Origin: a virus | Lineage: Duplodnaviria > Heunggongvirae > Uroviricota > Caudoviricetes | Length of the DNA stretch: 64,000 nucleotides | Direction: 5' to 3' (one strand) | Virus record (IMG/VR): IMGVR_UViG_3300026549_002476 | In this document: in pieces, positions 17,067-32,444 of the stretch | How the letters are laid out: each line of letters begins with the position of its first letter | How positions within the stretch are numbered: position 1 is the first letter of the stretch | The notes under the pieces: generated by a model | The model's input: only the letters and a program-made list of their open reading frames with translations | The model's database searches: none | Told to the model about the DNA's origin: nothing | Position numbers and translations under genes: made by a program

Positions 17067-17744
17067 ATGGCTAATATTCTTAGTAGGTTTGGAAGTATCA
17101 TGAGTGCAAACATTAATGCACTCCTTGATAAGGCAGAGGATCCTGAGAAGATGATTGATCAGAACCTTCGTGAGCTTCGTGAAGACCTTGCTGAAGTTAA
17201 GGAGCAGACAGCCGGTGTTATGGCTGATGAGAAGGCAGCTGCTAGAAAGCTTGAGGAGTGCAAGAAACACATCGCTGACTGTGAAAGAGCTCAGGTAAAT
17301 GCTGTTAAAGCTGGAGATGATGATGGTGCTCGGGCAATTATTTCGGAAAAGCTTCATTATCAGGGAAATCTTCCTTCACTTCAGCAGACTTATGATGTTG
17401 CACATGCTAACTCTGAAAAGATGAAGGCTATGTACAATAAGCTTGTTGGTGATATTAATCAACTTGAGTCTCGTAAGGATGCAATCAAGGGAAAGATTGC
17501 AGTAGCTAAGGCAACTGAGAAGGTCAATAAGATGACTTCCAATGCATCTAAAGCCAATTCTTCTATCGAAGATTTTGATAGGTGGGAAGATAGGGCTAAT
17601 AAGATGCTTGACAAGGCAAATGCTGAGACTGAACTTAACCAGCAGGATATAGCAGCTGAGGATTATGTTACAAAGTACAAGGATAGTACTGACTTTGACG
17701 TAGAAGCAGAACTTGCTAAGACAAAAGCAAGTCTTGGAATGTAA
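17067..17744 (+). CDS. pspA: PspA/IM30 family protein (phage-shock protein A / LiaH-like)
   Basis: Strong RBS atggaggaat. N-terminus MANILSRFGSIMSANINALLDKAEDPEKMIDQNLRELREDL closely matches the PspA N-terminus ([28 protein letters not shown]…), with a coiled-coil remainder. Confidence 0.85.
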   Translation: MANILSRFGSIMSANINALLDKAEDPEKMIDQNLRELREDLAEVKEQTAGVMADEKAAARKLEECKKHIADCERAQVNAVKAGDDDGARAIISEKLHYQGNLPSLQQTYDVAHANSEKMKAMYNKLVGDINQLESRKDAIKGKIAVAKATEKVNKMTSNASKANSSIEDFDRWEDRANKMLDKANAETELNQQDIAAEDYVTKYKDSTDFDVEAELAKTKASLGM

Positions 17745-19184: not shown

Positions 19185-19398
19185 ATTAAAGGTTCTTTCA
19201 GAGTATTATTGGAAAATTCCATGTGAAAAGAAAACTTTTGAATTGCGTAAAGATGATAGAGATTACAAAGTAGGTGACATTCTTGACTTAAAAGAATGGG
19301 ATGGTGAAAAATTTACTGGGCATCATGTACGCCGTGAAATAACCTACATCTTACGAAATTGCAAACAATATGGTATTGAAGATGGATCTAACTGGTAA
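19174..19398 (+). CDS. DUF3850-like (ASCH-related) small protein
   Basis: RBS gaggaaagg upstream of the ATG at 19174. KKTFELRKDDRDYKVGDILDLKEWDG…GHHVRREITYIL resembles the DUF3850 signature. Confidence 0.45.
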   Translation: MTHELKVLSEYYWKIPCEKKTFELRKDDRDYKVGDILDLKEWDGEKFTGHHVRREITYILRNCKQYGIEDGSNW

Positions 19399-20815
19399 AG
19401 AATTTGGGGATTGGAAAGTTTTGCATAAAGCAGAGAAGGATCGATACTGGACTTGTCAGTGTAAATGTGGTACAGTAAAAGACGTATTAGATTACTCTCT
19501 AAAAAGTGGTAAATCAAAATCTTGTGGTCATTGTAATAATCCATATATTCATGCAGGAGATAAGTTTAATCATTGGACAGTTTTAGGCTGGGATAAAGAT
19601 AGAAATACATGGAAATGTCAGTGTGACTGTGGAAATATAGGATATGTTAGTGCAACGTCTTTAGTTAAGGGTTACTCAAAGTCATGTGGCTGCCAGCAAG
19701 GAAAATTAAGGGCAGTAACTATGATAAGTCGTTATGGTGAAACGGCTACTAATAAAGTAAACAGCCAATGTATTCGTGATGGATGGCAAGCTGAAACCAT
19801 GTATGACAAGGATAGACTGAAAGAATTTATAGTTAACCTTGGATATAAACCAACAATTGAAGATTTGGCTAATTTACTTGGAGTTCAGAGAGCAGCAATG
19901 CTGAAAAGAATAAATACACTTGAACTAAGGGATTATATAAACTTTGAGCATGACTATGCCAAATCAAATGGCGAAGATGAACTTTTAGAATATATAAAGA
20001 GCATATGCAATAAAGAGATAAAGACTCATGTAAAAGATGTAATTAAACCATATGAGTTGGACATTTATATGCCAGAATTAAACCTCGCATTTGAGTTTAA
20101 TGGAGATTATTGGCATAGTGAAGTATTCAAAGATAAGAAATATCATCAAAATAAATTTCTCATGTGTACTAAGAAAAACATTCAACTTATACAGATTTTT
20201 GAGAATGAATGGGAGCTTAACAGAGATAAAATTGAAGCTTATATCAAAGATAAAATAAACCCTGAACATGTGTTATATGCTAGGAAATGTAAAGTAAAAT
20301 ACATAGATTCAAAAGATGCTGTAGATTTTGAGAACTTATATCATATAAGCGGCGGAGTAACTGCAGCAATTAATCTTGGAATTTATTATAATGACAAGTT
20401 AATCGGAGTAATGACTTTTAATAAATCAAGGTTTAACAGTAATTATCAGTATGAAATAATAAGAAGCTGTTATAAGGCTGGATATATAGTTGTTGGCGGA
20501 TCAGAAAGAATGATCAAGCAGTTTATAAAAGATTACAAGCCAAGAAGCATAGTAAGCTACTGTGATTTAAGCAAGTTTGTGGGTCTATCTTATTTGCACA
20601 TGGGATTTAAAATGAACCGAGTTACAGAGCCTAATTATGTTTGGATGAATTTAAACAACTCAGACATTAGAAGTAGATACCAGTGCATGAAGCAGAAATT
20701 AATAAAAAATGGTTGGGGTACAGAAGACCAAACTGAAAATGACATTATGCATAATCACGGGTATACAAAGATTTGGGGTTGCGGAAACGCAGAATATGTT
20801 TGGGTGGATGAATAA
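19370..20815 (+). CDS. multi-domain protein: two tandem Cys-rich zinc modules (W-x-C-x-C-x-C-G…S-C-G-[CH]) plus a Vsr/DUF559-like PD-(D/E)xK nuclease-like core and a further C-terminal domain; paralog of the next gene; possible free-standing homing-endonuclease-like element
   Basis: Repeats WTCQCKCGTV…SCGHC and WKCQCDCGNI…SCGC. YELDIYMPELNLAFEFNGDYWHS resembles Vsr/DUF559 cores. Collinear similarity with ORF 20818-22545. Confidence 0.4.
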   Translation: MVLKMDLTGKEFGDWKVLHKAEKDRYWTCQCKCGTVKDVLDYSLKSGKSKSCGHCNNPYIHAGDKFNHWTVLGWDKDRNTWKCQCDCGNIGYVSATSLVKGYSKSCGCQQGKLRAVTMISRYGETATNKVNSQCIRDGWQAETMYDKDRLKEFIVNLGYKPTIEDLANLLGVQRAAMLKRINTLELRDYINFEHDYAKSNGEDELLEYIKSICNKEIKTHVKDVIKPYELDIYMPELNLAFEFNGDYWHSEVFKDKKYHQNKFLMCTKKNIQLIQIFENEWELNRDKIEAYIKDKINPEHVLYARKCKVKYIDSKDAVDFENLYHISGGVTAAINLGIYYNDKLIGVMTFNKSRFNSNYQYEIIRSCYKAGYIVVGGSERMIKQFIKDYKPRSIVSYCDLSKFVGLSYLHMGFKMNRVTEPNYVWMNLNNSDIRSRYQCMKQKLIKNGWGTEDQTENDIMHNHGYTKIWGCGNAEYVWVDE

Positions 20816-20817
20816 GG

Positions 20818-22545
20818 ATGGAAAGTAAAAAGAAAAGATTAACTTCAAAAGACATAATAGGACATAGATTTGGAAGGCTTGTAGCTTTGTCATATGCTGG
20901 AGATGGCAAATATTTGTGCCAGTGTGACTGTGGAAATAAGAAGTTAATTGCCACATATAGCCTTACAAGTGGAGCAACACAATCTTGTGGGTGTTTAAGG
21001 CGTGAAGTAACTAGTAAAACTATGATGAAATATGATTTAACCGGACAGACATTTGGTGAATGGACTGTTATAGCTCATCATGGATCAGGCAGTTTATGGT
21101 TATGTCGATGTAGCTGTGGAAAAGAAAAACTTATAGCTGCAAGCCATTTATTAAGTGGAATTACAAAATCTTGTGGACATAATACAACGGGATTTAAGGA
21201 TTTAACAGGACAAAAATTTGGCAGACTTACAGTAATTAGTTACAATGGGCATAGAAGTTGGCATTGTAAGTGTGATTGCGACAGAGAGACTGATGTAGTA
21301 ACAGATAATTTAATTAATGGTCGAACTACATCTTGTGGGCATCATCTAAAGAACGAAGATCAGTTTATAGATATATCTGGAAGAACGTTTGGATACTTAA
21401 CAGCTATTAAATATGTTGGTGGAAATAAGTGGCTATGCAAATGTATTTGTGGAAATTATACTATTAAAGATTCACAGCATTTAAGAAGATCTGATACTAT
21501 ATCATGTGGGTGTAAAGAACCTAAAAAATGGACTGAGGATGAAATAATAGAAAAAATAAATGAATATATAAAGATAAATGGGGAAAGACCATATAGATAT
21601 GACTTATGTTCTTTGTTGAATCTTTCACATACTTCTGTAGAAAGATGGATACAAAGGTATAATTTGTATGAATATATTGGATCAACTTATAGAAGCAGAT
21701 ATGAAGAAGAAATAAATAAAATGTTTCCAACTAATTTTGTTAATGATAGGCATGAAATACCTGGGTATGAACTAGATCTATATTATCCAGAGCAGAGAGT
21801 AGCAATAGAGTTCAATGGGAATCTATGGCATTCAGACAGATATAAGGATAAAAATTATCATAAGAATAAAGCAATAACTTGTGGAAAAAATAATATAAAG
21901 TTAATAAGTATATTTGAATACGAGTGGGAAGATCCAAACAAAAAATCTAAAATTATTAATCTAATAAAAAGAGAACTTAACATAGATAAACCGAATATTA
22001 TATATGGAAGAAAAACTTATATACATACAATAGATAGTGACACAGCTAAAAATTTTCTTGAATTATATCATATAGATGGCAATGCAACATCTAGTATTCA
22101 AGTAGGGATGTTTTTTGATAATGAACTAATAGGGGTTATTACTCTTGGGAAACCAAGGTTTAATAATAAATATGAGTATGAAATAATAAGATTGTGTTGG
22201 AAAGATAATACAGCAGTTATTGGTGGGACTAACAAATTAATAAGATATGTTATTAAAAAATATAATATAAAATCTTTAATAACATATGCAGATTTATCAA
22301 AGTTTAATGGAATGTCCTATAAAAAGTTTGGGTTTAAAGTAGATGGTATAACTGATCCTAATTACATATGGTGGACATCTAATGGAAATGAAGTATTAAC
22401 AAGATATCAAACTCAAAAACATAAATTAATTCAATTAGGACTTGGTAAAGCAGATGAAACAGAAGAAGAAATCATGACAAAAATGGGATATAATAAAATA
22501 TATGATTGTGGCAATATGAGGTATACATGGATTAGAAATAATTAA
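20818..22545 (+). CDS. paralog of the previous gene with four Cys-rich zinc modules plus the same nuclease-like and C-terminal domains
   Basis: Four repeats of about 48 aa, each with a (D)LTGQ-FG-(R)L-T-V-I…W-x-C-x-C-x-C-G…S-C-G-[CH] pattern. YELDLYYPEQRVAIEFNGNLWHS core. Confidence 0.4.
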   Translation: MESKKKRLTSKDIIGHRFGRLVALSYAGDGKYLCQCDCGNKKLIATYSLTSGATQSCGCLRREVTSKTMMKYDLTGQTFGEWTVIAHHGSGSLWLCRCSCGKEKLIAASHLLSGITKSCGHNTTGFKDLTGQKFGRLTVISYNGHRSWHCKCDCDRETDVVTDNLINGRTTSCGHHLKNEDQFIDISGRTFGYLTAIKYVGGNKWLCKCICGNYTIKDSQHLRRSDTISCGCKEPKKWTEDEIIEKINEYIKINGERPYRYDLCSLLNLSHTSVERWIQRYNLYEYIGSTYRSRYEEEINKMFPTNFVNDRHEIPGYELDLYYPEQRVAIEFNGNLWHSDRYKDKNYHKNKAITCGKNNIKLISIFEYEWEDPNKKSKIINLIKRELNIDKPNIIYGRKTYIHTIDSDTAKNFLELYHIDGNATSSIQVGMFFDNELIGVITLGKPRFNNKYEYEIIRLCWKDNTAVIGGTNKLIRYVIKKYNIKSLITYADLSKFNGMSYKKFGFKVDGITDPNYIWWTSNGNEVLTRYQTQKHKLIQLGLGKADETEEEIMTKMGYNKIYDCGNMRYTWIRNN

Positions 22546-22561
22546 ATTATAGAGGTTGTGT

Positions 22562-25500
22562 ATGTATAGTAAAGGTAAATTTCATTCAAAAGGTAAAGAT
22601 TATGATGCTCTCGTAAATTACACGAAGAGTAGGACAGAAGTCCTGTTAATATCAAAAGGAACTATTGTATCAGCTTACAAAACTGATAAAACTGGGAATT
22701 ACAGCTTTGCAAGTATGGCTGCTCAGGATTTATTTAAGGTGGTATCAAAAGGTCTTGGCTATTGTAACTCTAAGAATGGAACACCTATGCCATTCGTTGG
22801 GTTAGGAGCAGTAACTAGACATGAGTTTAGCAAGATGAAGCTACACTATGATATTACTGAAATTAACCATGAGCTTGTGGAATGTGACATATCAAATAAT
22901 GAGACAGATGACAATGGAAGTTCTAAAATGACTCTTAATTTGTCTCATATTGATAAAGCTATTATTCCAAATAACATTGCATATGTTAAACTTACTGAAG
23001 TAAAAGATGTAAAAACTGTAGAAAATGCTGAAGAAGACCTTGACAATATAGTTACACGAAGTATTGAAGAGATTGCTCTAACTAAGGAAGACGGTGGAGC
23101 ATGGCTTAAGAACAAGAAATACTATATTGTCAATGATGACGCAACAGCTGAGCAGATTTTTGAATACCTTGACAATTATGATGGTGCTATTGCATATGAT
23201 ACAGAGACTACAGGGTTAAAGATTAACTGCTTTGGTAAAGTTGGTTCACATTATGAAAAGGAATTAGCAGAATATAATGCAAGTCACCCTGATGAAAAGA
23301 TTCGTGAGGACCGGCTTGTTGGGATTATTTTCTGTGTTGAACCGAATGTGAGCTATTATTTTCCAGTGTTTAACAGAAAGTTTAAGAATCTATATCAGGA
23401 TTTAAACAGTCCAATCCGTAAGAAAACTGTAGAGATCATTAAAGCAAGATATACAATTGGCGAGTTTAGGGATAGAGATTCTGACATGGCTAATTACATC
23501 AGAAACACCCCAGAGAATGAGTGGAGACTTGATGTAATTCTGATGGAACGTGTCAGAGATATTTTAAGCAAGAAGCATATTGTCACACATGGCGGAATTT
23601 TTGAGTGGCGCGTTGGATGGACTTATGAAATTGATACAAATATCTGCGATGACACGATGATTATTCATCAGTTAATTTATAAGTTTAGAAGTACAACGAG
23701 CAATGCAGGTGAGCCTTCTAACCTGAAGTATCTAGCTAAGCATGATCTTGGTGTTGACCAGTGGGAATTAAAGGATTTCTTCCCGAATTTCAAGGCTGAC
23801 GATACCGGACTTGTTAAAGAGCGTAAAGATGGTAAAGGGCCTAAAAAGGGAAGTAGAATTGATTTCTCATATATGGATTATGCTGGTACACAGATTTATG
23901 CACCAGCTGATGGAGACATGACTCTCGAGTTGTATTTGAAGTACAAGAAAGATATGCTTGAACATTTTAAGGACTTTGAGTATATCTATAATATTGAGAT
24001 TATTGTAACTTGTGCCATGGGTTATGTTGAGTTTTATGGACATAGAATTAATGAGAGTAAGATCAATGGTGCTCGTTTACAGACTGCCGCTGAAATAGTA
24101 GATGTAGAAGAGCAGATTAGACAAGCTATTAATTATGCTAGCCAAGATGAAATAAATGTACATAATCAGTTAAAGACGGCTATGACTGAGGCTGAAAAAG
24201 GCGATGTAAACGATCCAGCTATTTCTGGCAAGCTTGACGGGTTAGCTAAAAAACTTAGAGAAACAATTGATGCAAATACAGATCATGCTTTAAACATCAA
24301 TTCACCTGCACAGGTAGCTGCATTATTCTTTGATGTACTTGGTTATCCCGATCCAGATGGAAAGAGATCAGTGAGCAAGAAGGTTTACAAAGGTCTTGCA
24401 AAGGAAGTTGGGGATGACGGTAAACTGAAGTATCCAATCGCTGGTTTATATCAGAAATACAAGGCTAAGGTAACACTTCAAACAAAATTCTTTGATCAAT
24501 TGCAGTATTTCCAGTATCCAGAGGGGTTGATTTTTTCTGATTTTGGTCAGATCAGTACTGCTACAGGCCGTATGAGTTGCAAACATCCAAATTGCCAGCA
24601 GTACCCTAAAGTTATTACCAAGATCGTTGAGCCAAGACCTGGATACATTATGTTGGATGCTGATTATTCACAGATTGAGTATCGTGTCCTTACAGCATTA
24701 GCTCATAACTCTGGATTAAGAGAACTGTTTAGTAGTCCTGATAGTGATTATCATACACTTATGGCTTCTCTAATGTATGGTGTTCCATATGCAAGCGTGA
24801 CACCACAGATGAGATCATCTGCAAAGAGTTTCAATTTTGGTATACCATATGGCATGGGCTTTAAGTCATTAGCAATATTACTTCATGGAAACGCATCTCC
24901 AGAATCAGTAGATGACGCAAAAGTCAAATATGAAATGTATTTTAAGAACCAGCCAAACACTCGCAAATTCTTTGATAATGTTAAGGAACAAGCTCAGGTG
25001 TATGGATATACTAAAACAGCATTTAATCGTAGGAGATATTATAATTTTACATCAAAAGATGGAACAGTTAATAATGCAAAAAAGGCAGCAGCATTAAGAC
25101 AAGCAGGTAACGCTGTTATTCAAGGATGCCTCAGTGGTGAAACTAGGATACAAACGAAAGAATTAGGTATCATTAAAATTAAGGATGCAGTCAATACACA
25201 TCTACATGTATGGGATGGTAATACCTGGGCAGAAGGAGATGTACTTTATTCAGGAAAGAAACAGAAGTGCATTGTTACATTCAGTAATGGACAAAAGTTC
25301 ATTTGCAGTCCAATTCATAAGTTTCTTGTGAAGAGCCATAAGGGTAATACCAGGTTTGTAGAGTGTAAGGATCTGTTAACCAAAGCAAATTCAAAGAACC
25401 CTCATAGGATTGTGATTAATCCTAAGTATGAGAAGTCTGATTTTGTTTATTCTAGCAATTGGGCTAGAAGATATGATGAAATTAGTAACAATGCTAATAA

Positions 25501-27274
25501 TGCACATTTAGATGATGCAGATAACTCTTTTGATGCAGGAGTTGTACTTGGAAGACTGGCATCAGTTGGTACAATTGGAAAAAGAGAAGAAGGCGCATCT
25601 TACATTTTAAACTCTGTAGCAGAACATGAGAAGAATATAGTTCCTGAATTGAGAAGATGTTTGAGCTTTTACGGAGATGTAAAGGAACATATATTAAATA
25701 GAGAAGGCAAGAATGAGGCTATAGATAGAATGTACATTTATAGCAAGTCTCTTGTTGACGAAGTAAGCGAGCTTGATATTAAGCACCATATTAGCGATTT
25801 AATATTCCAAGACACTGAAATGCTTAGAGGTTTTTTGAGGGGAATATTTGATGGCGATGGCGGAATCATGGGAAAAACGATCACTTTGACTTTTGGTAAG
25901 CAGAGCGATTTTACAGAGTACATGAGAGATATTCAGAAGGCTCTTGCATTTTTTGGTATTAGAAGCAGAATATATGAATTTAAAGACTGCTATCATGTTA
26001 CAATTAAAGAGAATGATAACAATAGATTTTTGGACCTTATTGGATTTATGAATAAAGACAAGCAGGATAAAAGGGATGACATACAGCCAATTAGAGATGA
26101 GCATATTTTTGGAAGAATCCTTATTCCTGAATCCGTAGAGATCACTGACGAATGGATTGACATGTATGATGTGTGTAATACAACTAATGGTTACTATGTA
26201 GCTGACGGAATTGTAACACATAACACAGCTGCTGATATTTTTAAAATCAGCCTTGCTCGTAATTTTACATTTATTAGAAATCATAATCTTTATGGTAAAT
26301 TGTTAATTATAAATCTTATTCATGATGAGCAACTTATGGAAGTAGATGTGCAGCATTTAAATGCTCAGAGGATACTTGCAGAAGTTGGAAGAAACATGCA
26401 GTTCAGCTTGCCAGAGTTTCCACCTTTGTACATTGGTGCAGGTATTGGTAAAGCTTGGGGCACTGCTAAAGGCAAGATGGCAGAGATTCATCCGCTCTTG
26501 CTTGAGCAGTATACTAAAGAAGCTGAGAATATTCCGATTGAGAGAGCTGAAGCAACTTGGAATGATCCTAATAAAGTAATTGAGTACTTTGATGATAGAA
26601 ACTTAGAATTCAGACGTAAGAAAGTAGCTGATTACATTACAGATCCAAGCCATTGGAATCAGCCATTACACCCTGCAATTGGTGGTCTAATCAATCTTCA
26701 GTTTAATTATGGACGTGGTGGTGATGCTAAGGCTTATGTAGATGAAAATGGAAATCATGTGACAGATGCAGAATTTCTTGAAATGAACTTAGCAGACTTC
26801 ATTAAAGAAAATGGATTAAATGTTGATCCACATACATTCTTTGAGGACAAAGATCAAGTTCAGGCTGAAACACAAGATGAAGAAGAAGACAAAGAATACG
26901 ATGACGATGATGATGAAAATCCAGATGACATTGCAACATCAATTAGTGACGACCCAGATAAGGTATTTTCAGTAGTTGATGAATCTGATAAAACATTTGG
27001 ATCCTCTCTTCAAGACATTATATCTGTGTTTGGATGCTGTTTATTGGAAAATCAAAGAGTGTGTGGTATTGATTTAAGAGGTATGAGTAACAAAGGACGT
27101 AATAGCATGATTGATGCTATTTGTGAGTATGTATGTGAACCAACAGATAGTAAGGGATTACAGCTTGTGTTTCTTAAAGACGGAAACATCCTAGATAAAA
27201 CAGGGGTTTATGTTTCTGGAATCAATGGTTCTACAGCTGAAGCTGAATACAAGAAATTTAAAGCTTTACACTAA
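22562..27274 (+). CDS. polA: DNA polymerase I-like family A polymerase (3'-5' exonuclease plus polymerase), intein-containing, with about 300-aa acidic/Cys-containing C-terminal extension
   Basis: RBS agagg plus ATG at 22562. Exo motif IAYDTETTGL. Pol motifs LDADYSQIEYRVLTAL (A), KSFNFGIPYGMG (B), NAVIQG/TAADIFKISLA (Taq NMPVQGTAADLMKLAM), LIHDEQLMEV (C). Confidence 0.9.
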   Translation: MYSKGKFHSKGKDYDALVNYTKSRTEVLLISKGTIVSAYKTDKTGNYSFASMAAQDLFKVVSKGLGYCNSKNGTPMPFVGLGAVTRHEFSKMKLHYDITEINHELVECDISNNETDDNGSSKMTLNLSHIDKAIIPNNIAYVKLTEVKDVKTVENAEEDLDNIVTRSIEEIALTKEDGGAWLKNKKYYIVNDDATAEQIFEYLDNYDGAIAYDTETTGLKINCFGKVGSHYEKELAEYNASHPDEKIREDRLVGIIFCVEPNVSYYFPVFNRKFKNLYQDLNSPIRKKTVEIIKARYTIGEFRDRDSDMANYIRNTPENEWRLDVILMERVRDILSKKHIVTHGGIFEWRVGWTYEIDTNICDDTMIIHQLIYKFRSTTSNAGEPSNLKYLAKHDLGVDQWELKDFFPNFKADDTGLVKERKDGKGPKKGSRIDFSYMDYAGTQIYAPADGDMTLELYLKYKKDMLEHFKDFEYIYNIEIIVTCAMGYVEFYGHRINESKINGARLQTAAEIVDVEEQIRQAINYASQDEINVHNQLKTAMTEAEKGDVNDPAISGKLDGLAKKLRETIDANTDHALNINSPAQVAALFFDVLGYPDPDGKRSVSKKVYKGLAKEVGDDGKLKYPIAGLYQKYKAKVTLQTKFFDQLQYFQYPEGLIFSDFGQISTATGRMSCKHPNCQQYPKVITKIVEPRPGYIMLDADYSQIEYRVLTALAHNSGLRELFSSPDSDYHTLMASLMYGVPYASVTPQMRSSAKSFNFGIPYGMGFKSLAILLHGNASPESVDDAKVKYEMYFKNQPNTRKFFDNVKEQAQVYGYTKTAFNRRRYYNFTSKDGTVNNAKKAAALRQAGNAVIQGCLSGETRIQTKELGIIKIKDAVNTHLHVWDGNTWAEGDVLYSGKKQKCIVTFSNGQKFICSPIHKFLVKSHKGNTRFVECKDLLTKANSKNPHRIVINPKYEKSDFVYSSNWARRYDEISNNANNAHLDDADNSFDAGVVLGRLASVGTIGKREEGASYILNSVAEHEKNIVPELRRCLSFYGDVKEHILNREGKNEAIDRMYIYSKSLVDEVSELDIKHHISDLIFQDTEMLRGFLRGIFDGDGGIMGKTITLTFGKQSDFTEYMRDIQKALAFFGIRSRIYEFKDCYHVTIKENDNNRFLDLIGFMNKDKQDKRDDIQPIRDEHIFGRILIPESVEITDEWIDMYDVCNTTNGYYVADGIVTHNTAADIFKISLARNFTFIRNHNLYGKLLIINLIHDEQLMEVDVQHLNAQRILAEVGRNMQFSLPEFPPLYIGAGIGKAWGTAKGKMAEIHPLLLEQYTKEAENIPIERAEATWNDPNKVIEYFDDRNLEFRRKKVADYITDPSHWNQPLHPAIGGLINLQFNYGRGGDAKAYVDENGNHVTDAEFLEMNLADFIKENGLNVDPHTFFEDKDQVQAETQDEEEDKEYDDDDDENPDDIATSISDDPDKVFSVVDESDKTFGSSLQDIISVFGCCLLENQRVCGIDLRGMSNKGRNSMIDAICEYVCEPTDSKGLQLVFLKDGNILDKTGVYVSGINGSTAEAEYKKFKALH
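25127..26224 (+). mobile_element. intein (366 aa) with LAGLIDADG homing-endonuclease domain, inserted between Q-G and T-A-A-D of the polymerase
   Basis: In frame with polA. Begins CLSGET and ends VTHN followed by Thr. Internal FLRGIFDGDGGI and DAGVVLGRLASVG LAGLIDADG-type blocks. Extein halves re-join into the conserved PolA motif. Confidence 0.8.
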
Positions 27275-27305
27275 GTTGTATTAATAATAAGATAAATAAT
27301 ATAAT

Positions 27306-27364
27306 AGCATTGAAGTATAATAAGTATATTTAAAAATTAATTACTTCAATGCTATTTTTATTTT
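27306..27364 (+). terminator. hairpin/terminator after polA
   Basis: agcattgaagt … acttcaatgct 11-bp stem with a large loop, followed by atttttatttt. Confidence 0.45.
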
Positions 27365-27404: not shown

Positions 27405-27893
27405 ATGGACAATAATAATACAATTGTAATGCCTGGGCATGATAATACAGGCGCTGATATGTTAAAACAATCTAATGCATTGGCTAGTGATCGTGAAAAG
27501 GTAAAGGATGCAATCTCTGGCAGAGAAGTTGATATTGTAATTATACCTAAGGAAAAAACTATTGATCCAAAGAATTACTTATTATACATAGCTAATTGCA
27601 AACTAAATCCTATACAAACAGGTGTATTAAAAATGTTAACTGTTAAGAATAGTGATATTGACGCAATTAATCAAATTGATGAAGAAGATAGAGTCACAGT
27701 TTACTTGTATAATAAGAATAAAGGTATTTTAAACATTGGAATAGGTAATGATAGACAATTAAGTCGATTGTTACCATTGATTAAAAAATATGATTTTGAT
27801 GATAAAATACATATTTATGTAAATGTTGAAGCAGGTAAGCCATTAAAAGAGCTTAATGAAGTCAATTTCTCTAAATTTAGATTAAGAATTTAG
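27405..27893 (+). CDS. hypothetical protein
   Basis: ORF with a modest RBS. Confidence 0.4.
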   Translation: MDNNNTIVMPGHDNTGADMLKQSNALASDREKVKDAISGREVDIVIIPKEKTIDPKNYLLYIANCKLNPIQTGVLKMLTVKNSDIDAINQIDEEDRVTVYLYNKNKGILNIGIGNDRQLSRLLPLIKKYDFDDKIHIYVNVEAGKPLKELNEVNFSKFRLRI

Positions 27894-27940
27894 CCTAGAT
27901 GTAGTCAAAGTATATTAAAAATTAAAATAGGAGGTTTGCT

Positions 27941-28372
27941 ATGAATGATAACACTAATATTAATAATATAAACTCTGAAAATACTGTGAATACTAAGGCA
28001 AAATCTGATCCAGAAATTGATAATTGTATGAATAATCTTATGAAGATGAAGTTTTCAGAGAAGAGTACAAAGGTAGCTGTTTCTTTTAGAAAAACTTGCT
28101 TTATTAGAGATTACGAAACGGAAGTTGTCGAGGCAGACACAGAAGTTACATTTGATCATGAAATTTCTGGGGCAGAAAGAGAGTTTGTAGCTACTGCACT
28201 TCAGGCTCAAATGGAATACGCAGGATATGCTGGTTTGAGAAGTAAAAAGCTTATTTCTGAAAAGGAGTTTGCAGAGCGCAAGAAGGATTTAGCTACTTCT
28301 GTAGTAAGCTTTGCAAACAAACTGGAACAGATTGAAGGGCCTGGAAGTGTAGCTAAATACTTTAAGGATTAA
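27941..28372 (+). CDS. hypothetical protein
   Basis: Strong RBS aggaggtt. Confidence 0.45.
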   Translation: MNDNTNINNINSENTVNTKAKSDPEIDNCMNNLMKMKFSEKSTKVAVSFRKTCFIRDYETEVVEADTEVTFDHEISGAEREFVATALQAQMEYAGYAGLRSKKLISEKEFAERKKDLATSVVSFANKLEQIEGPGSVAKYFKD

Positions 28373-28376
28373 AGCT

Positions 28377-29060
28377 ATGAGATATAACATTAAATGTGAA
28401 CCATTTCCAATAGTTGTATGCAATTTAAGTGATGGCGAGGAAATTATTACTGAAAGCGGAGTGATGGTTTGGATGTCTCCTAACATGGAGATGCAAACAC
28501 AAGCTGGTGGTATAGGTGGATTCTTTTCAAAAACATTATCTGGTGAACATGGATTTACTAATACTTATGTATCACATGGAAAAGGATTAATTACACTCGG
28601 AAGTCACTTTGCAGGACAAATAGTAGATATTGATATAACACCAGAAAAAGATTTTATACTTCAAAAAGGTGCTTTCTTAGGTATGGAATCTGGGGTCAAC
28701 ATGTCAATATTTTTCAGACCAAACCTTGTGACAGGAAGCTTTGGTGGTGAAGGGTTTATAATGCATAGACTTTCAGGGAACGGAAAAGTTTTTGCAGAAG
28801 TAGATGGGTCTTTGGTTAAATATCAGTTGGAACCAGGACAGCAGATGATAGTTAGCACAGGACATGTTATAGGTATGGATTCAACTGTTATAATGGACAT
28901 TAAAACAGTTGCAGGGTTGAAAAATAAATTGTTTGGCGGATATGGATTTTTCAATACTGTTTTAACTGGGCCAGGAGTTATTTATTTGCAGACAATGCCA
29001 ATTAGTAAGTTAGCAAGATCTATTATTCCATACTTACCAAGAGATGACAGTAAATATTAA
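28377..29060 (+). CDS. AIM24/TIGR00266 (DUF124) family protein
   Basis: Gly-rich repetitive beta pattern (GGIGGFFSK…GEGFIMHRLSGNGKVFAEVDGSLVKYQLEPGQQMIVSTGHVIGMD…GGYGFFNTVLTGPGVIYLQTMP) typical of this family. Confidence 0.6.
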   Translation: MRYNIKCEPFPIVVCNLSDGEEIITESGVMVWMSPNMEMQTQAGGIGGFFSKTLSGEHGFTNTYVSHGKGLITLGSHFAGQIVDIDITPEKDFILQKGAFLGMESGVNMSIFFRPNLVTGSFGGEGFIMHRLSGNGKVFAEVDGSLVKYQLEPGQQMIVSTGHVIGMDSTVIMDIKTVAGLKNKLFGGYGFFNTVLTGPGVIYLQTMPISKLARSIIPYLPRDDSKY

Positions 29061-29088
29061 AGACTAAAAGAATGACAGGTGTATTCTT

Positions 29089-29343
29089 ATGGAAGACAGA
29101 TCGGATAGATATGTAATGCTGGTTAATGACAGATGGCTCTTTGACAGAGAAAAGAACATTTGTTATCAGATTAGTTATAATCAGAATGGAGAGTATAGCA
29201 AGTATAAAGAAGCATTTAACATTACTTTTGATGATAATAACAATATGATTTTCAATAAGAAAATCAGAGTTCCACTTCTTATACTAAAGGAGGCATCGTA
29301 TCAGTCAACAAAACCAAGAAAGTTTGTGGAGGACAATGAGTGA
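29089..29343 (+). CDS. hypothetical small protein
   Basis: ORF with a weak RBS. Confidence 0.3.
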   Translation: MEDRSDRYVMLVNDRWLFDREKNICYQISYNQNGEYSKYKEAFNITFDDNNNMIFNKKIRVPLLILKEASYQSTKPRKFVEDNE

Positions 29344-30115
29344 AAATAGTATAAGAAACATAAAAAAATTGCATAGAAAGCCAAGAAAGAAAAAGGCTAG
29401 CACTAGGCATGATCTATATTATTCCGAAAGATTTCATGGGCATAGACAAAAGAAGAATAAGGAATATATAGATAAAATATTACAATCAAAAACAAGATTA
29501 ATGGTTGACATAACAAATTTTCATTGTACATACTGTGGAAGTGCAATGAAGCAAACTAAGATGATTGAAACTACTACAATTGCAAATAGTGAAGAACAGG
29601 AGAAAAGAGGCACAAAAATCATCGAAATTGAAGAATCAAGGATGCTGATTCTTCCAAAGAATGAGTTTTACATGGTTTGTCCTAAGTGTGGAGCCAGGTG
29701 CAGGGTTAAAAAGACAAATGGAAATAATTATAGAGTTATTTCCACACCAGCAGATGTACTTCTTAGAAAGCGTAGAGCTGAAGCACATTTCTATTTTAAT
29801 AGGCTTGTTAAATATGGAATAATAGACAGTGTGTATGATGCATATAACTGGTTAACTCAAGTTACTGGGATTAACATGTATGGTGTGACTACTCAAAGGC
29901 ACATCGGAGAAATGGGTAAAGCACTCTGTGAAAAAGTAATAACCGAGTCAGTAACTAAGTTATGTGAGAATTGGGATAAATGGCCAAAGTTGTTGCCAGT
30001 TTACAGGTCAAATGATAAAGATACTGGTAAAAATTTAAGTTATGTCAATAGTAATAATGAATTGAAACAAATGATAAGAGAAGCTAATAAGAAGTTTTCG
30101 GAAAGGACATCATAA
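29336..30115 (+). CDS. zinc-ribbon protein (C-x-x-C-G … C-P-K-C-G)
   Basis: RBS gtggagg plus ATG at 29336 (the track start at 29324 is a TTG). FHCTYCGSAMK and YMVCPKCGARCRV motifs. Confidence 0.4.
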   Translation: MSENSIRNIKKLHRKPRKKKASTRHDLYYSERFHGHRQKKNKEYIDKILQSKTRLMVDITNFHCTYCGSAMKQTKMIETTTIANSEEQEKRGTKIIEIEESRMLILPKNEFYMVCPKCGARCRVKKTNGNNYRVISTPADVLLRKRRAEAHFYFNRLVKYGIIDSVYDAYNWLTQVTGINMYGVTTQRHIGEMGKALCEKVITESVTKLCENWDKWPKLLPVYRSNDKDTGKNLSYVNSNNELKQMIREANKKFSERTS

Positions 30116-30121
30116 GTTAAT

Positions 30122-30913
30122 ATGCAAGCAATTGACAGCATGGAGAAATACACTGAAGAGTTTACTTCATATGTAAAAGATATGGAAGAACGTGCTGGTG
30201 ATAATAAGTTACAAGATTTTGCAAACTTAAGAAGATTTCCAATGGACATAATTAAGAAATCAGACATCTTTTATATTGAAGACGCAACTGAGATGCTTGT
30301 GCCTAAATACTTAAGTGAAGTTGATGACTTTGGAGTTATTTCTCCAACAAATAGAAAACCTATATTCCACAATAGATATGTAATTCCGATTAAGGATGTA
30401 AATGGGAATGTGCTAAACTTAGTTGGATACAGTCATGACGCAGATGAAAGATATGTTTATGGGACTGCCAAGTATTATAGACGTCGTGAAACAATGTATG
30501 GGCTTGAAAATTTGGAAATAGCATATGATTTAGGATATGCAATAGTGACTGAAGGTATTACTGATACTATTAGAGTGAGAAGCCTTGGATATCCAAATTG
30601 TTTTGCAATGTGTGGCACTCATAAAAGTGAGTTTATAATGAAACAGCTGAATAGATGCAGATATGGCGTGATTAAAATTCCAGACAGAGATGCACCTGGG
30701 CGTAGAGCATTGAAGGGTTGGGAGTGCAACCGGGGAGTTACATTATTTACATTTGTAACATATAAAGATATAGATGAAATGTGTGCTGATCCTGAACATC
30801 CAGATAATGAAAACATAGTTAAGGAATATATAGATGGATGCATAGAATGGTTAAAAACTCATGAACATAACGGAATCAAGTGTGAAAATGAAGAATTAAC
30901 AATAAACATTTAA
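30122..30913 (+). CDS. Toprim-domain protein, DnaG-type primase-like
   Basis: AIVTEGITDTIRV (Toprim E-G motif) and IKIPDRDAPGRRA (compare DnaG D-G-D-R-A-G-R-x-A). Confidence 0.55.
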   Translation: MQAIDSMEKYTEEFTSYVKDMEERAGDNKLQDFANLRRFPMDIIKKSDIFYIEDATEMLVPKYLSEVDDFGVISPTNRKPIFHNRYVIPIKDVNGNVLNLVGYSHDADERYVYGTAKYYRRRETMYGLENLEIAYDLGYAIVTEGITDTIRVRSLGYPNCFAMCGTHKSEFIMKQLNRCRYGVIKIPDRDAPGRRALKGWECNRGVTLFTFVTYKDIDEMCADPEHPDNENIVKEYIDGCIEWLKTHEHNGIKCENEELTINI

Positions 30914-31094
30914 AATTTAGGGGGTTATTAAAAATGATCTTTAAAGCAGCTATGATAGTAATTAGCAGTTTGCTTGCTTTTATAGCAGATGATGTAATCT
31001 AACATTGAGGTGAAGTATGAACTCACGTAACACTGATGGTTGGCATTGTGCAGATGATTGTGGAACAGATTGCAAAGGAAGAAGAATGTAAACT

Positions 31095-31562: not shown

Positions 31563-32444
31563 ATGACTAAGAATTCTAATATTAAAAGTAAGAGAATTAT
31601 TGTTGTAGCTGTCGTAGTTATTATTGTACTTGCCATTATTAAACAGTCCATAGTGGTAATTCCCACAGGGTATACTGGTGTAAAATCTATTTTTGGGCAG
31701 GTAAGTAAGCAGTCTATGCCTAATGGCATTAATTTTAAAATCCCGTTTGTTGAGAAAGTGACAAAGGTCAATACAAAACAGCAGGATGATTATTTTGAAG
31801 GACAGATTTGGTCAGAGACTTCAGATATGACTGAAATTTACTATGATCAGATTACAGTAACATATCAGATTCTTCCTGACAAGGCTTCATGGATTGTGTC
31901 AAATGTGACGAATTACAGGGATGCTCTTGTGAACGCTACATCTGTGAGTTCTGCTGTAAAGGAAGCATCTCGACAGCTTGATTCTAAAAATGCAACGAAT
32001 CGTGGAAAGATTGAACCTTTAGTTCTGCAGTCTTTACAGGATTCTCTTGATAAGAAATATGGTGATCAGGTGGTAACAATTGATCGTGTTGTAATTGGGG
32101 ATGCTAACTTCGAGGAAAGTTATAACGAAGCTATTGCATCCAGACAGAAAGCCCAGATTGAAGCTGAGCAGCAGGCGATTGAGAACCAGAAAGCGATTGA
32201 CAAGGCGACTGCTGATGCAAAAGTTAAGACAACACAAGCTCAGGCTGATGCAGATGCAGCAGTGATTGAGGCTCAGGGCCAGGCTGATGCAAATAAACTG
32301 TTGAATGATTCAATTACTGATAAAACTTTAAAGCAGCAGTATCTTGATAAGTGGAACGGAGAACTTCCAAAGGTAACTTCTGGTTCTGATGTGATTGTTG
32401 GAATGGATGACCTTGGCAGTTCAGATAGTTCCGGAGCAGACTAA
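31563..32444 (+). CDS. SPFH/band-7 (prohibitin/stomatin/HflKC-like) membrane protein
   Basis: N-terminal TM helix IIVVAVVVIIVLAII, then GYTGVKSIFGQV…FKIPFVEKVTKVNTKQQ… SPFH-like core and an Ala/Gln-rich coiled-coil C-terminus. Confidence 0.65.
   Translation: MTKNSNIKSKRIIVVAVVVIIVLAIIKQSIVVIPTGYTGVKSIFGQVSKQSMPNGINFKIPFVEKVTKVNTKQQDDYFEGQIWSETSDMTEIYYDQITVTYQILPDKASWIVSNVTNYRDALVNATSVSSAVKEASRQLDSKNATNRGKIEPLVLQSLQDSLDKKYGDQVVTIDRVVIGDANFEESYNEAIASRQKAQIEAEQQAIENQKAIDKATADAKVKTTQAQADADAAVIEAQGQADANKLLNDSITDKTLKQQYLDKWNGELPKVTSGSDVIVGMDDLGSSDSSGAD

Follow-up and report, generated by a model that had tools for sequence, protein, structure and literature searches.

Proteins of the AIM24/TIGR00266 family are widespread in bacteria and archaea and make up a conserved dark-matter family for which two structural-genomics crystal structures exist. 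The bacterial members are uncharacterised (PMC6393860, PMC5822837, PMC10203443), and AIM24 is counted among the widespread uncharacterised genes of archaea (PMC6393860). Eukaryotic AIM24 proteins work with membrane complexes (PMC3975624, PMC6677890, PMC10203443): yeast Aim24 stabilises MICOS (the organising system of mitochondrial contact sites and cristae) and respiratory supercomplexes, and plant PAWH1/2 act in the Hrd1 complex of endoplasmic-reticulum-associated degradation (ERAD). Both have the predicted fold of the family (PMC10203443, PMC3975624, PMC6677890). Here we describe a protein with the same Pfam domain that is encoded by a tailed phage, in a 64,000-nt stretch of IMG/VR record IMGVR_UViG_3300026549_002476 (hereafter the window), in which every gene lies on the + strand and the guanine-cytosine (GC) content is about 0.34 (33.6%).

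Among viruses, AIM24 has been described in the algal giant virus TetV-2 (TetV2_00382; preprint, bioRxiv 10.1101/2025.10.09.676808). A second algal giant virus, Aureococcus anophagefferens virus (AaV), encodes an AIM24 protein (A0A076FMM9) that was the sole structural match to the phage protein in BFVD (E = 8e-13, template modelling score 0.81). These are independent captures by very large double-stranded DNA viruses that infect eukaryotes and have no gene context in common with the window; the AaV protein is 21% identical to that of the phage, and its source is presumably eukaryotic or organellar. Among gut phages, the Jug phages are huge and carry and express terD and pspA-like genes, and also a Ca-ATPase (PMC12880540); AIM24 is mentioned neither in that paper nor in two supplement files of its preprint.

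We consider it likely that the window records the capture of a host AIM24 gene by a huge gut phage, into its replication operon, where it is expressed with the replication genes and retained as an auxiliary gene. What is new is a known cellular family in an unprecedented genomic host, a phage; captures of single host genes are expected in phages of 400 kb.

A complete AIM24 domain without a predicted membrane anchor

The assignment to AIM24/TIGR00266 had been proposed in an initial annotation made from the sequence, and it was upheld by hidden Markov model searches. The 227-aa protein passed the cut-offs of both Pfam AIM24 (PF01987; 208.1 bits against 25.7, E = 1.5e-61, profile positions 1-205 of 205) and TIGR00266, an NCBIfam hypothetical equivalog (111.1 bits against 96.6, profile positions 1-219 of 222). 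With phmmer, it matched the solved family members 1yox (1.9e-29) and 1pg6 (8e-20), and its predicted model has the fold of these structures, with a beta core that was modelled with confidence. Confidence in the model was low at three Gly-rich loops (GGIGGFF, GSFGGEGF and FGGYGFF), one per internal repeat, and all three GG-x-GF loop motifs are retained.

No transmembrane segment or hydrophobic stretch was predicted in the 227-aa sequence. Eukaryotic Aim24 and PAWH1/2, which work in the membranes of organelles, are extended by targeting or membrane-anchor segments, whereas the phage protein is the bare domain. The label 'membrane-associated' that it had initially been given was extrapolated from these yeast and plant homologues; a location at membranes has been demonstrated for eukaryotic family members only (PMC3975624, PMC6677890).

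AIM24 in a six-gene run between PolA and primase

The AIM24 gene lies among the following features, in which ORF stands for open reading frame:

22556-27274, + strand: PolA, a family-A DNA polymerase with an intein, directly upstream of ORF1
27303-27356, + strand: terminator-like hairpin 3' of PolA, in which a perfect 15-bp stem carries a 24-nt loop, with a U-rich tract after it
27405-27893, + strand: ORF1, 162 aa
27941-28372, + strand: ORF2, 143 aa
28377-29060, + strand: AIM24/TIGR00266 protein, 227 aa
29089-29343, + strand: ORF4, 84 aa
29336-30115, + strand: ORF5, a DUF3268-type zinc ribbon, 259 aa (ATG at 29336; TTG at 29324)
30122-30913, + strand: DnaG-type primase catalytic core, 263 aa, the final gene of the tight run

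All five + strand ORFs from ORF1 to ORF5 were confirmed as first annotated. They had been described as a compact, translationally tight unit, and the close packing stands, with gaps of 47, 4, 28, -8 and 6 nt from ORF1 to the primase. The delimitation does not: the run continues beyond 30115 and has six genes, the primase included, and its tightness is inherited from a PolA-primase operon, as shown by the relatives described below. Gaps of 130 nt upstream and 181 nt downstream flank the run. With five successive gaps that do not exceed 50 nt, it is the longest such series in the window, although it is not exceptional, because across the window gaps have a median of 48.5 nt and 52% of them measure at most 50 nt.

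The hairpin 3' of PolA (RNA fold of -19.1 kcal/mol, z = -4.5 against shuffles) probably marks the upstream boundary of the ORF1-to-primase run, where it would act as a terminator. Its loop holds the motif AAGTATATTTAAAA, a second copy of which lies upstream of ORF2 (27908-27921). No + strand terminator was found between ORF1 and the end of the primase. Because the Shine-Dalgarno sequence of AIM24 (AAGGA, 8 nt upstream of the start) overlaps the end of ORF2, and because no promoter or terminator of its own could be detected, the gene is most likely an operon passenger. The likely transcription unit, judged from these signals, comprises all six genes including the primase.

Separately, a 23-nt inverted repeat (91% complementary) pairs the 3' end of AIM24 (29019-29041) with the middle of ORF5 (29804-29826); roughly estimated, chance alone would give about 0.01 pairs of this kind in a 4.4-kb stretch.

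Relatives of the operon lack AIM24 and ORF5

The primase has several hundred relatives. We compared five lineages in which it is 64-75% identical to that of the window, on contigs ranging from 17 kb to 720 kb (loci L014-L022). All five share one layout: PolA, three small genes of approximately 156, 128 and 83 aa, and the primase, with neither an AIM24 nor a DUF3268 gene in between. On the basis of tblastn and alignments, the three small genes are homologues of ORF1 (28-34% identity), ORF2 (39-46%) and ORF4 (26-41%). Since the relatives keep these three without AIM24 or the zinc ribbon, ORF1, ORF2 and ORF4 are core genes of the replication module.

The spacer between ORF2 and ORF4, which measures 4-12 nt in the relatives, is occupied by AIM24 in the window. 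Further along, ORF4 of the relatives overlaps the start of the primase. In L020 this junction reads GTGGAGGACAATGAGT, so that ORF4 ends in VEDNE and a stop and the primase begins with MS, and the junction of ORF4 with ORF5 in the window is exactly the same overlap. From this identity we infer that ORF5 was inserted right after the ancestral ATG-AGT of the primase and inherited its coupled start; the primase of the window now starts 6 nt past the ORF5 stop. Because the conserved ORF4 separates them, AIM24 and ORF5 occupy two separate insertion sites. Gene order in the relatives indicates that AIM24 and ORF5 are two separate insertions and that translational tightness is a property of the PolA-primase operon. 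The five genes had been put forward as a unit whose conservation could be followed across phage genomes. This did not hold, as the five relatives have homologues of ORF1, ORF2 and ORF4 without AIM24 or ORF5, and all five genes occur together only within the same species.

The AIM24 gene is a stable part of the phage genome

The exact AIM24 protein, or variants 97-98% identical to it, was encoded in every independently assembled contig that was long enough, across several studies. Every same-species contig spanning the region had the same six-gene order at 97-100% identity. The junctions around AIM24 were common to at least 10 independently assembled contigs from different studies, and the reading frame was intact and full length in every strain contig seen, from many samples. 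The exact ORF5 protein occurred in at least 61 data blocks, on contigs of up to 400,213 bp. Strains varied near the locus: PolA lacked an intein (1204 aa) or had one of LAGLIDADG type (1570 aa) or HNH type (1619 aa), ASCH was present or absent, and NrdD was either intact (window) or split by an inserted gene (L009); the contigs compared for PolA and NrdD were L009, L010 and L011.

A probable donor among gut bacteria and apparently altered constraints

The nearest proteins to the phage AIM24 are bacterial, with 57-65% identity, and come from gut Oscillospiraceae, Acutalibacteraceae, Agathobaculum, Clostridiaceae, Lachnospiraceae and Collinsella. On a neighbour-joining tree, an Oscillospiraceae/Collinsella group was sister to the phage protein, whose terminal branch measured 0.27; the median branch was 0.10 and the 95th percentile 0.18. 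In gut Clostridia and Coriobacteriia, the genes for these nearest relatives stand alone, with variable neighbours. Across 83 bacterial AIM24 loci, no neighbour family was found in more than six, and none of the neighbour genes of the phage adjoined AIM24. Although the phage protein is of the same family as the bacterial TIGR00266 proteins (PA3696, PDB 1yox; SpyM3_0169, PDB 1pg6; and the gut Clostridia homologues), it differs from them in being encoded within a replication operon, where theirs are stand-alone chromosomal genes, and in lying on a long branch with 18 of 114 near-invariant positions changed.

These 114 positions are at least 95% conserved in the 119 closest bacterial relatives, and the phage protein has kept 96 of them (84%). 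Seven of the 18 changed positions are 100% conserved in the bacterial relatives; the changes include M23I, G43A, F74L, P79A, Q130H, E189Y and W203Y. The GC content at third codon positions (GC3) of the gene is 0.237 and resembles that of the adjacent phage genes, suggesting long residence in the phage.

Between strains, AIM24 showed 3 synonymous and 6-8 non-synonymous changes. Its ratio of non-synonymous to synonymous substitution rates (dN/dS) was 0.54-0.72, the highest in the operon, compared with 0.04-0.18 for ORF2; ORF5 had 0 non-synonymous and 5-7 synonymous changes, an indication that it is under strong purifying selection. The AIM24 changes cluster in the second Gly-rich loop, at residues 118-121. 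The counts are small; either relaxed or diversifying selection would fit them, even though the gene is intact everywhere. We read AIM24 as a retained auxiliary gene that probably has altered constraints and evolves faster than its bacterial relatives.

AIM24 is exceptionally rare in phages

The family had been said at the outset to be rare in phages, and the searches bore this out more strongly than claimed: no other convincing phage-borne AIM24 was found in PHROGs, in 50,697 phage records, in 2.9 million IMG/VR contigs or in BFVD. PHROGs contained no matching AIM24 family, and tblastn against the phage records returned three matches. OQ572403.1 (L104), deposited as 'UNVERIFIED Pseudomonas phage Y1', is P. 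aeruginosa chromosome with prfB, lysS and PA3696 itself. MT836723.1 (L105) is bacterial as well, a fragment that encodes FeoB, a glycosidase and a sigma factor, and the third match is a 66-residue end fragment. A motif scan of the IMG/VR contigs with the AIM24 alignment yielded two loci (L111 and L112). One consists of bacterial housekeeping genes; in the other (L111), AIM24 lies approximately 5 kb past the lysin/integrase end of a prophage, with ClpX beyond, in a flank of bacterial type. The examined 'phage' matches to AIM24 in databases are thus bacterial DNA or bacterial-type flanks, which calls for caution with automated counts of auxiliary genes.

Neighbouring genes of the replication operon

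Homologues of ORF1 directly follow PolA in all five relatives. Its sole Pfam match, to DUF7583, is weak and below threshold, and nothing matched it in PHROGs, the PDB or the phage records. ORF2 belongs to a family of 118 clusters in a library of 1.84 billion proteins. Its model, which has a predicted local distance difference test (pLDDT) score of 91.6, is built from one helix, a long beta-hairpin and a pair of long helices; it gave no specific structural match, and ORF2 has no Pfam or PHROG family. No informative match was found for ORF4.

ORF5 has a basic N-terminus, a CxxC...CxxC zinc ribbon (CTYC and CPKC) and a DUF3268-like C-terminal domain. It matched DUF3268 (PF11672) well above the cut-off (8.9e-12, 45.9 bits against 28.4, profile positions 26-118 of 121), which together with the CxxC pairs corroborates its original description as a zinc-ribbon protein, and it also matched phrog_1934 at 6e-11. 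No homologue other than itself was found among 5.8 billion proteins. A distant DUF3268 gene in Vibrio phage VvAW1 adjoins a replication initiation gene.

The primase matched PHROG DNA primase families and scored just above the cut-off for Toprim_2 (22.9 against 22.1). DNAG_N remained below threshold and TIGR01391 was covered at positions 122-380 only; the catalytic core is present and the zinc-binding domain is absent from the 263-aa protein. Judged from this arrangement, ORF1, ORF2 and ORF4 may be accessory proteins of the replisome. In every relative, ORF4 is translationally coupled to the primase, which has no zinc-binding domain, and it may thus be an accessory subunit of this enzyme. As a trio that is conserved but uncharacterised in the PolA-primase module of a large clade of gut huge phages, the three genes probably matter more broadly to the study of phage replication than does the 'AIM24 cluster' reading.

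Two further observations concern the surroundings of the operon. Upstream of PolA, 19370-20815 and 20818-22545 encode tandem paralogues with repeated Cys-rich N-terminal modules and a weak, sub-threshold Mom-like C-terminus (PF25680); they could be DNA-modification enzymes, and homologues occur in the relatives. In the gap between the primase and ASCH, two tiny ORFs with strong Shine-Dalgarno sites (30935-31003 and 31018-31092) encode one 22-aa hydrophobic peptide (MIFKAAMIVISSLLAFIADDVI) and one 24-aa Cys-rich peptide.

PspA and SPFH at separate insertion points

The initial annotation had grouped AIM24 with two other families that it saw in the same segment, PspA and SPFH. Both genes are real:

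17067-17744, + strand: PspA/IM30 (PF04012, 1.7e-34, 119.8 bits against a cut-off of 33.9, profile positions 1-216 of 220)
31563-32444, + strand: SPFH/Band 7 (PF01145, 1.1e-19, 71.7 bits against a cut-off of 23.6; phrog_200, 6.7e-40)

The PspA-type protein scores below the PspA and LiaH equivalog cut-offs, and the SPFH protein has a hydrophobic N-terminal stretch, IIVVAVVVIIVLAII, at residues 12-26. In phages, SPFH is common (178 records with relatives), whereas PspA almost matches AIM24 in rarity: the phage records yielded two unverified fragments, and there is no PHROG.

What did not stand was the idea of one module, because the three genes lie at three separate lineage-specific insertion points. 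The block that holds PspA, at approximately 14.7-19.3 kb, is flanked by a conserved 200-aa gene and by the Mom-like genes; a 373-aa Gly/Ser-rich membrane protein and a DUF285/PARCEL-repeat protein are also encoded in it. SPFH is one of several genes farther downstream of the primase that include ASCH, NrdD and NrdG. These belong to a lineage-specific block of 11 kb at approximately 30.9-42.0 kb (GC higher, at 0.38-0.42), which lies between the primase and conserved 395-aa/AAA_23 genes and also holds a ParB_N protein and many small ORFs. On a synteny map, both blocks are absent from the corresponding positions in the five relatives. Three host-type genes of similar theme at three sites are suggestive, but are no evidence of joint function.

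Kind of phage and likely host

The window encodes mostly replication and nucleotide-metabolism genes along with many ORFans, and no tRNA was found in it. Relatives of the locus reside on contigs of 427, 720 and 526 kb (L015, L016 and L018), and the longest contig bearing ORF5 exceeds 400 kb. A Shine-Dalgarno-like motif precedes 89% of the genes in the window, against a background of 20%. Bacteroidota make little use of Shine-Dalgarno sequences. The frequency of the motif suggests a host of Bacillota type rather than Bacteroides, which would agree with the affinities of AIM24.

The phage resembles the Jug phages (PMC12880540) in its 400-kb contig, in PolA and NrdD genes split by inteins or endonucleases, in its pspA-like gene and in its wide distribution across samples. 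It differs in GC content, the 33.6% of the window lying above the 27-30% reported for them, and, whereas the Jug phages have Bacteroides/Phocaeicola hosts, its Shine-Dalgarno usage argues for another type of host. We regard the resemblance as circumstantial.

Discussion

The capture probably proceeded as follows. The backbone is a huge gut phage's replication operon, consisting of PolA, ORF1, ORF2, ORF4 and the DnaG-type primase core. In the lineage of the window, it was joined by two foreign genes: a cellular AIM24 gene from the Oscillospiraceae/Acutalibacteraceae/Agathobaculum/Collinsella clade entered the spacer of a few nucleotides between ORF2 and ORF4, and the orphan DUF3268-type ORF5 entered just past the start codon of the primase, taking over the start coupled to ORF4. 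AIM24 has resided there long enough to adopt the codon composition of the phage. As an operon passenger, it would be transcribed and translated with the replication genes, in early to middle infection, and would act on host physiology.

Two other accounts of the locus itself fit the data poorly. Bacterial DNA mis-joined to phage sequence is what the other database 'phage' matches to AIM24 proved to be, yet an assembly artefact is extremely improbable here, given identical junctions in at least 10 independent assemblies, a GC3 that agrees with the phage and conserved phage genes on both sides, within 4 and 28 nt. It is also very hard to see the five genes as a co-evolved module centred on AIM24, with the small and zinc-ribbon proteins as its partners. 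Tight same-strand genes with overlapping or near-overlapping stops and starts, in an identical arrangement in all same-species contigs, are what such a module would look like. However, ORF1, ORF2 and ORF4 occur without AIM24 or ORF5 in the five relatives, always from PolA to primase; ORF5 has no homologues; bacterial AIM24 has no recurrent neighbour and is never found with these partners; the conserved ORF4 parts AIM24 from ORF5, hence two insertion sites; and the primase belongs to the tight run.

As to what the protein does, the role that we consider most likely is that of an all-beta scaffold stabilising membrane-associated assemblies during a long infection, a tentative proposal that is modelled on yeast Aim24 and plant PAWH1/2 and takes account of PspA and SPFH having been acquired in parallel. 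Its extension, in which AIM24, PspA and SPFH form a kit with which the phage maintains or remodels the host cytoplasmic membrane in a long infection, with AIM24 kept by selection, is unlikely. The main rivals to the scaffold role are a decoy acting against a host stress response linked to AIM24 and a neutral passenger. As a decoy, the protein would mimic a host subunit for counter-defence or takeover and titrate the host AIM24 oligomer or a partner, perhaps as a dominant-negative subunit, which assumes that host AIM24 is part of a stress or abortive-infection-type response. The long terminal branch with 18 near-invariant positions changed and the highest strain dN/dS of the operon, with changes clustered at residues 118-121, would suit this role, as would the AIM24 genes reported within ter clusters (PMC5822837, citing Anantharaman et al. 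2012) and the reported carriage and expression of terD and pspA-like genes by gut huge phages (PMC12880540). We nonetheless think a decoy quite unlikely, as AIM24 matches no PADLOC model, gut Clostridia carry it as a stand-alone gene in housekeeping contexts and not in defence islands, TerD was not detected in the window by a tblastn search of low sensitivity, and the substitutions are few. About equally unlikely is a neutral passenger, caught by chance in a cargo-tolerant genome of approximately 400 kb and now relaxed and decaying. Such a fate would explain a dN/dS of 0.54-0.72 against at most 0.18 for ORF2 and ORF5, the many altered conserved positions, the one-off occurrence among phages and a surrounding region rich in other lineage-specific cargo; it sits less well with a frame that is intact and full length in every contig from many samples, with the 84% of conserved positions and three GG-x-GF motifs that were kept, with a beta core that is confidently predicted, with a fully ameliorated composition that speaks for long retention, and with a dN/dS below 1.

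Several points weigh against capture and retention for a scaffold function as we propose it. The scaffold role would rest on distant eukaryotic homologues whose membrane anchors are absent from the phage protein, and a function shared by PspA, AIM24 and SPFH is so far a thematic coincidence, because distances of 10 kb and 2.5 kb part the genes, each of which has an island of its own. The absence of AIM24 in the relatives covers 20-kb stretches around the primase and not whole genomes, the donor clade is approximate, coming from a neighbour-joining tree without support values, and the raised dN/dS of AIM24, which depends on approximately 10 substitutions, could equally reflect relaxed constraint.

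Even so, the capture, retention and diversification of AIM24 by a phage point to a role that matters during infection, and make this phage a compact test system for the family. If the membrane-kit reading were true, it would provide the first experimental handle on the function of prokaryotic AIM24/TIGR00266 proteins.

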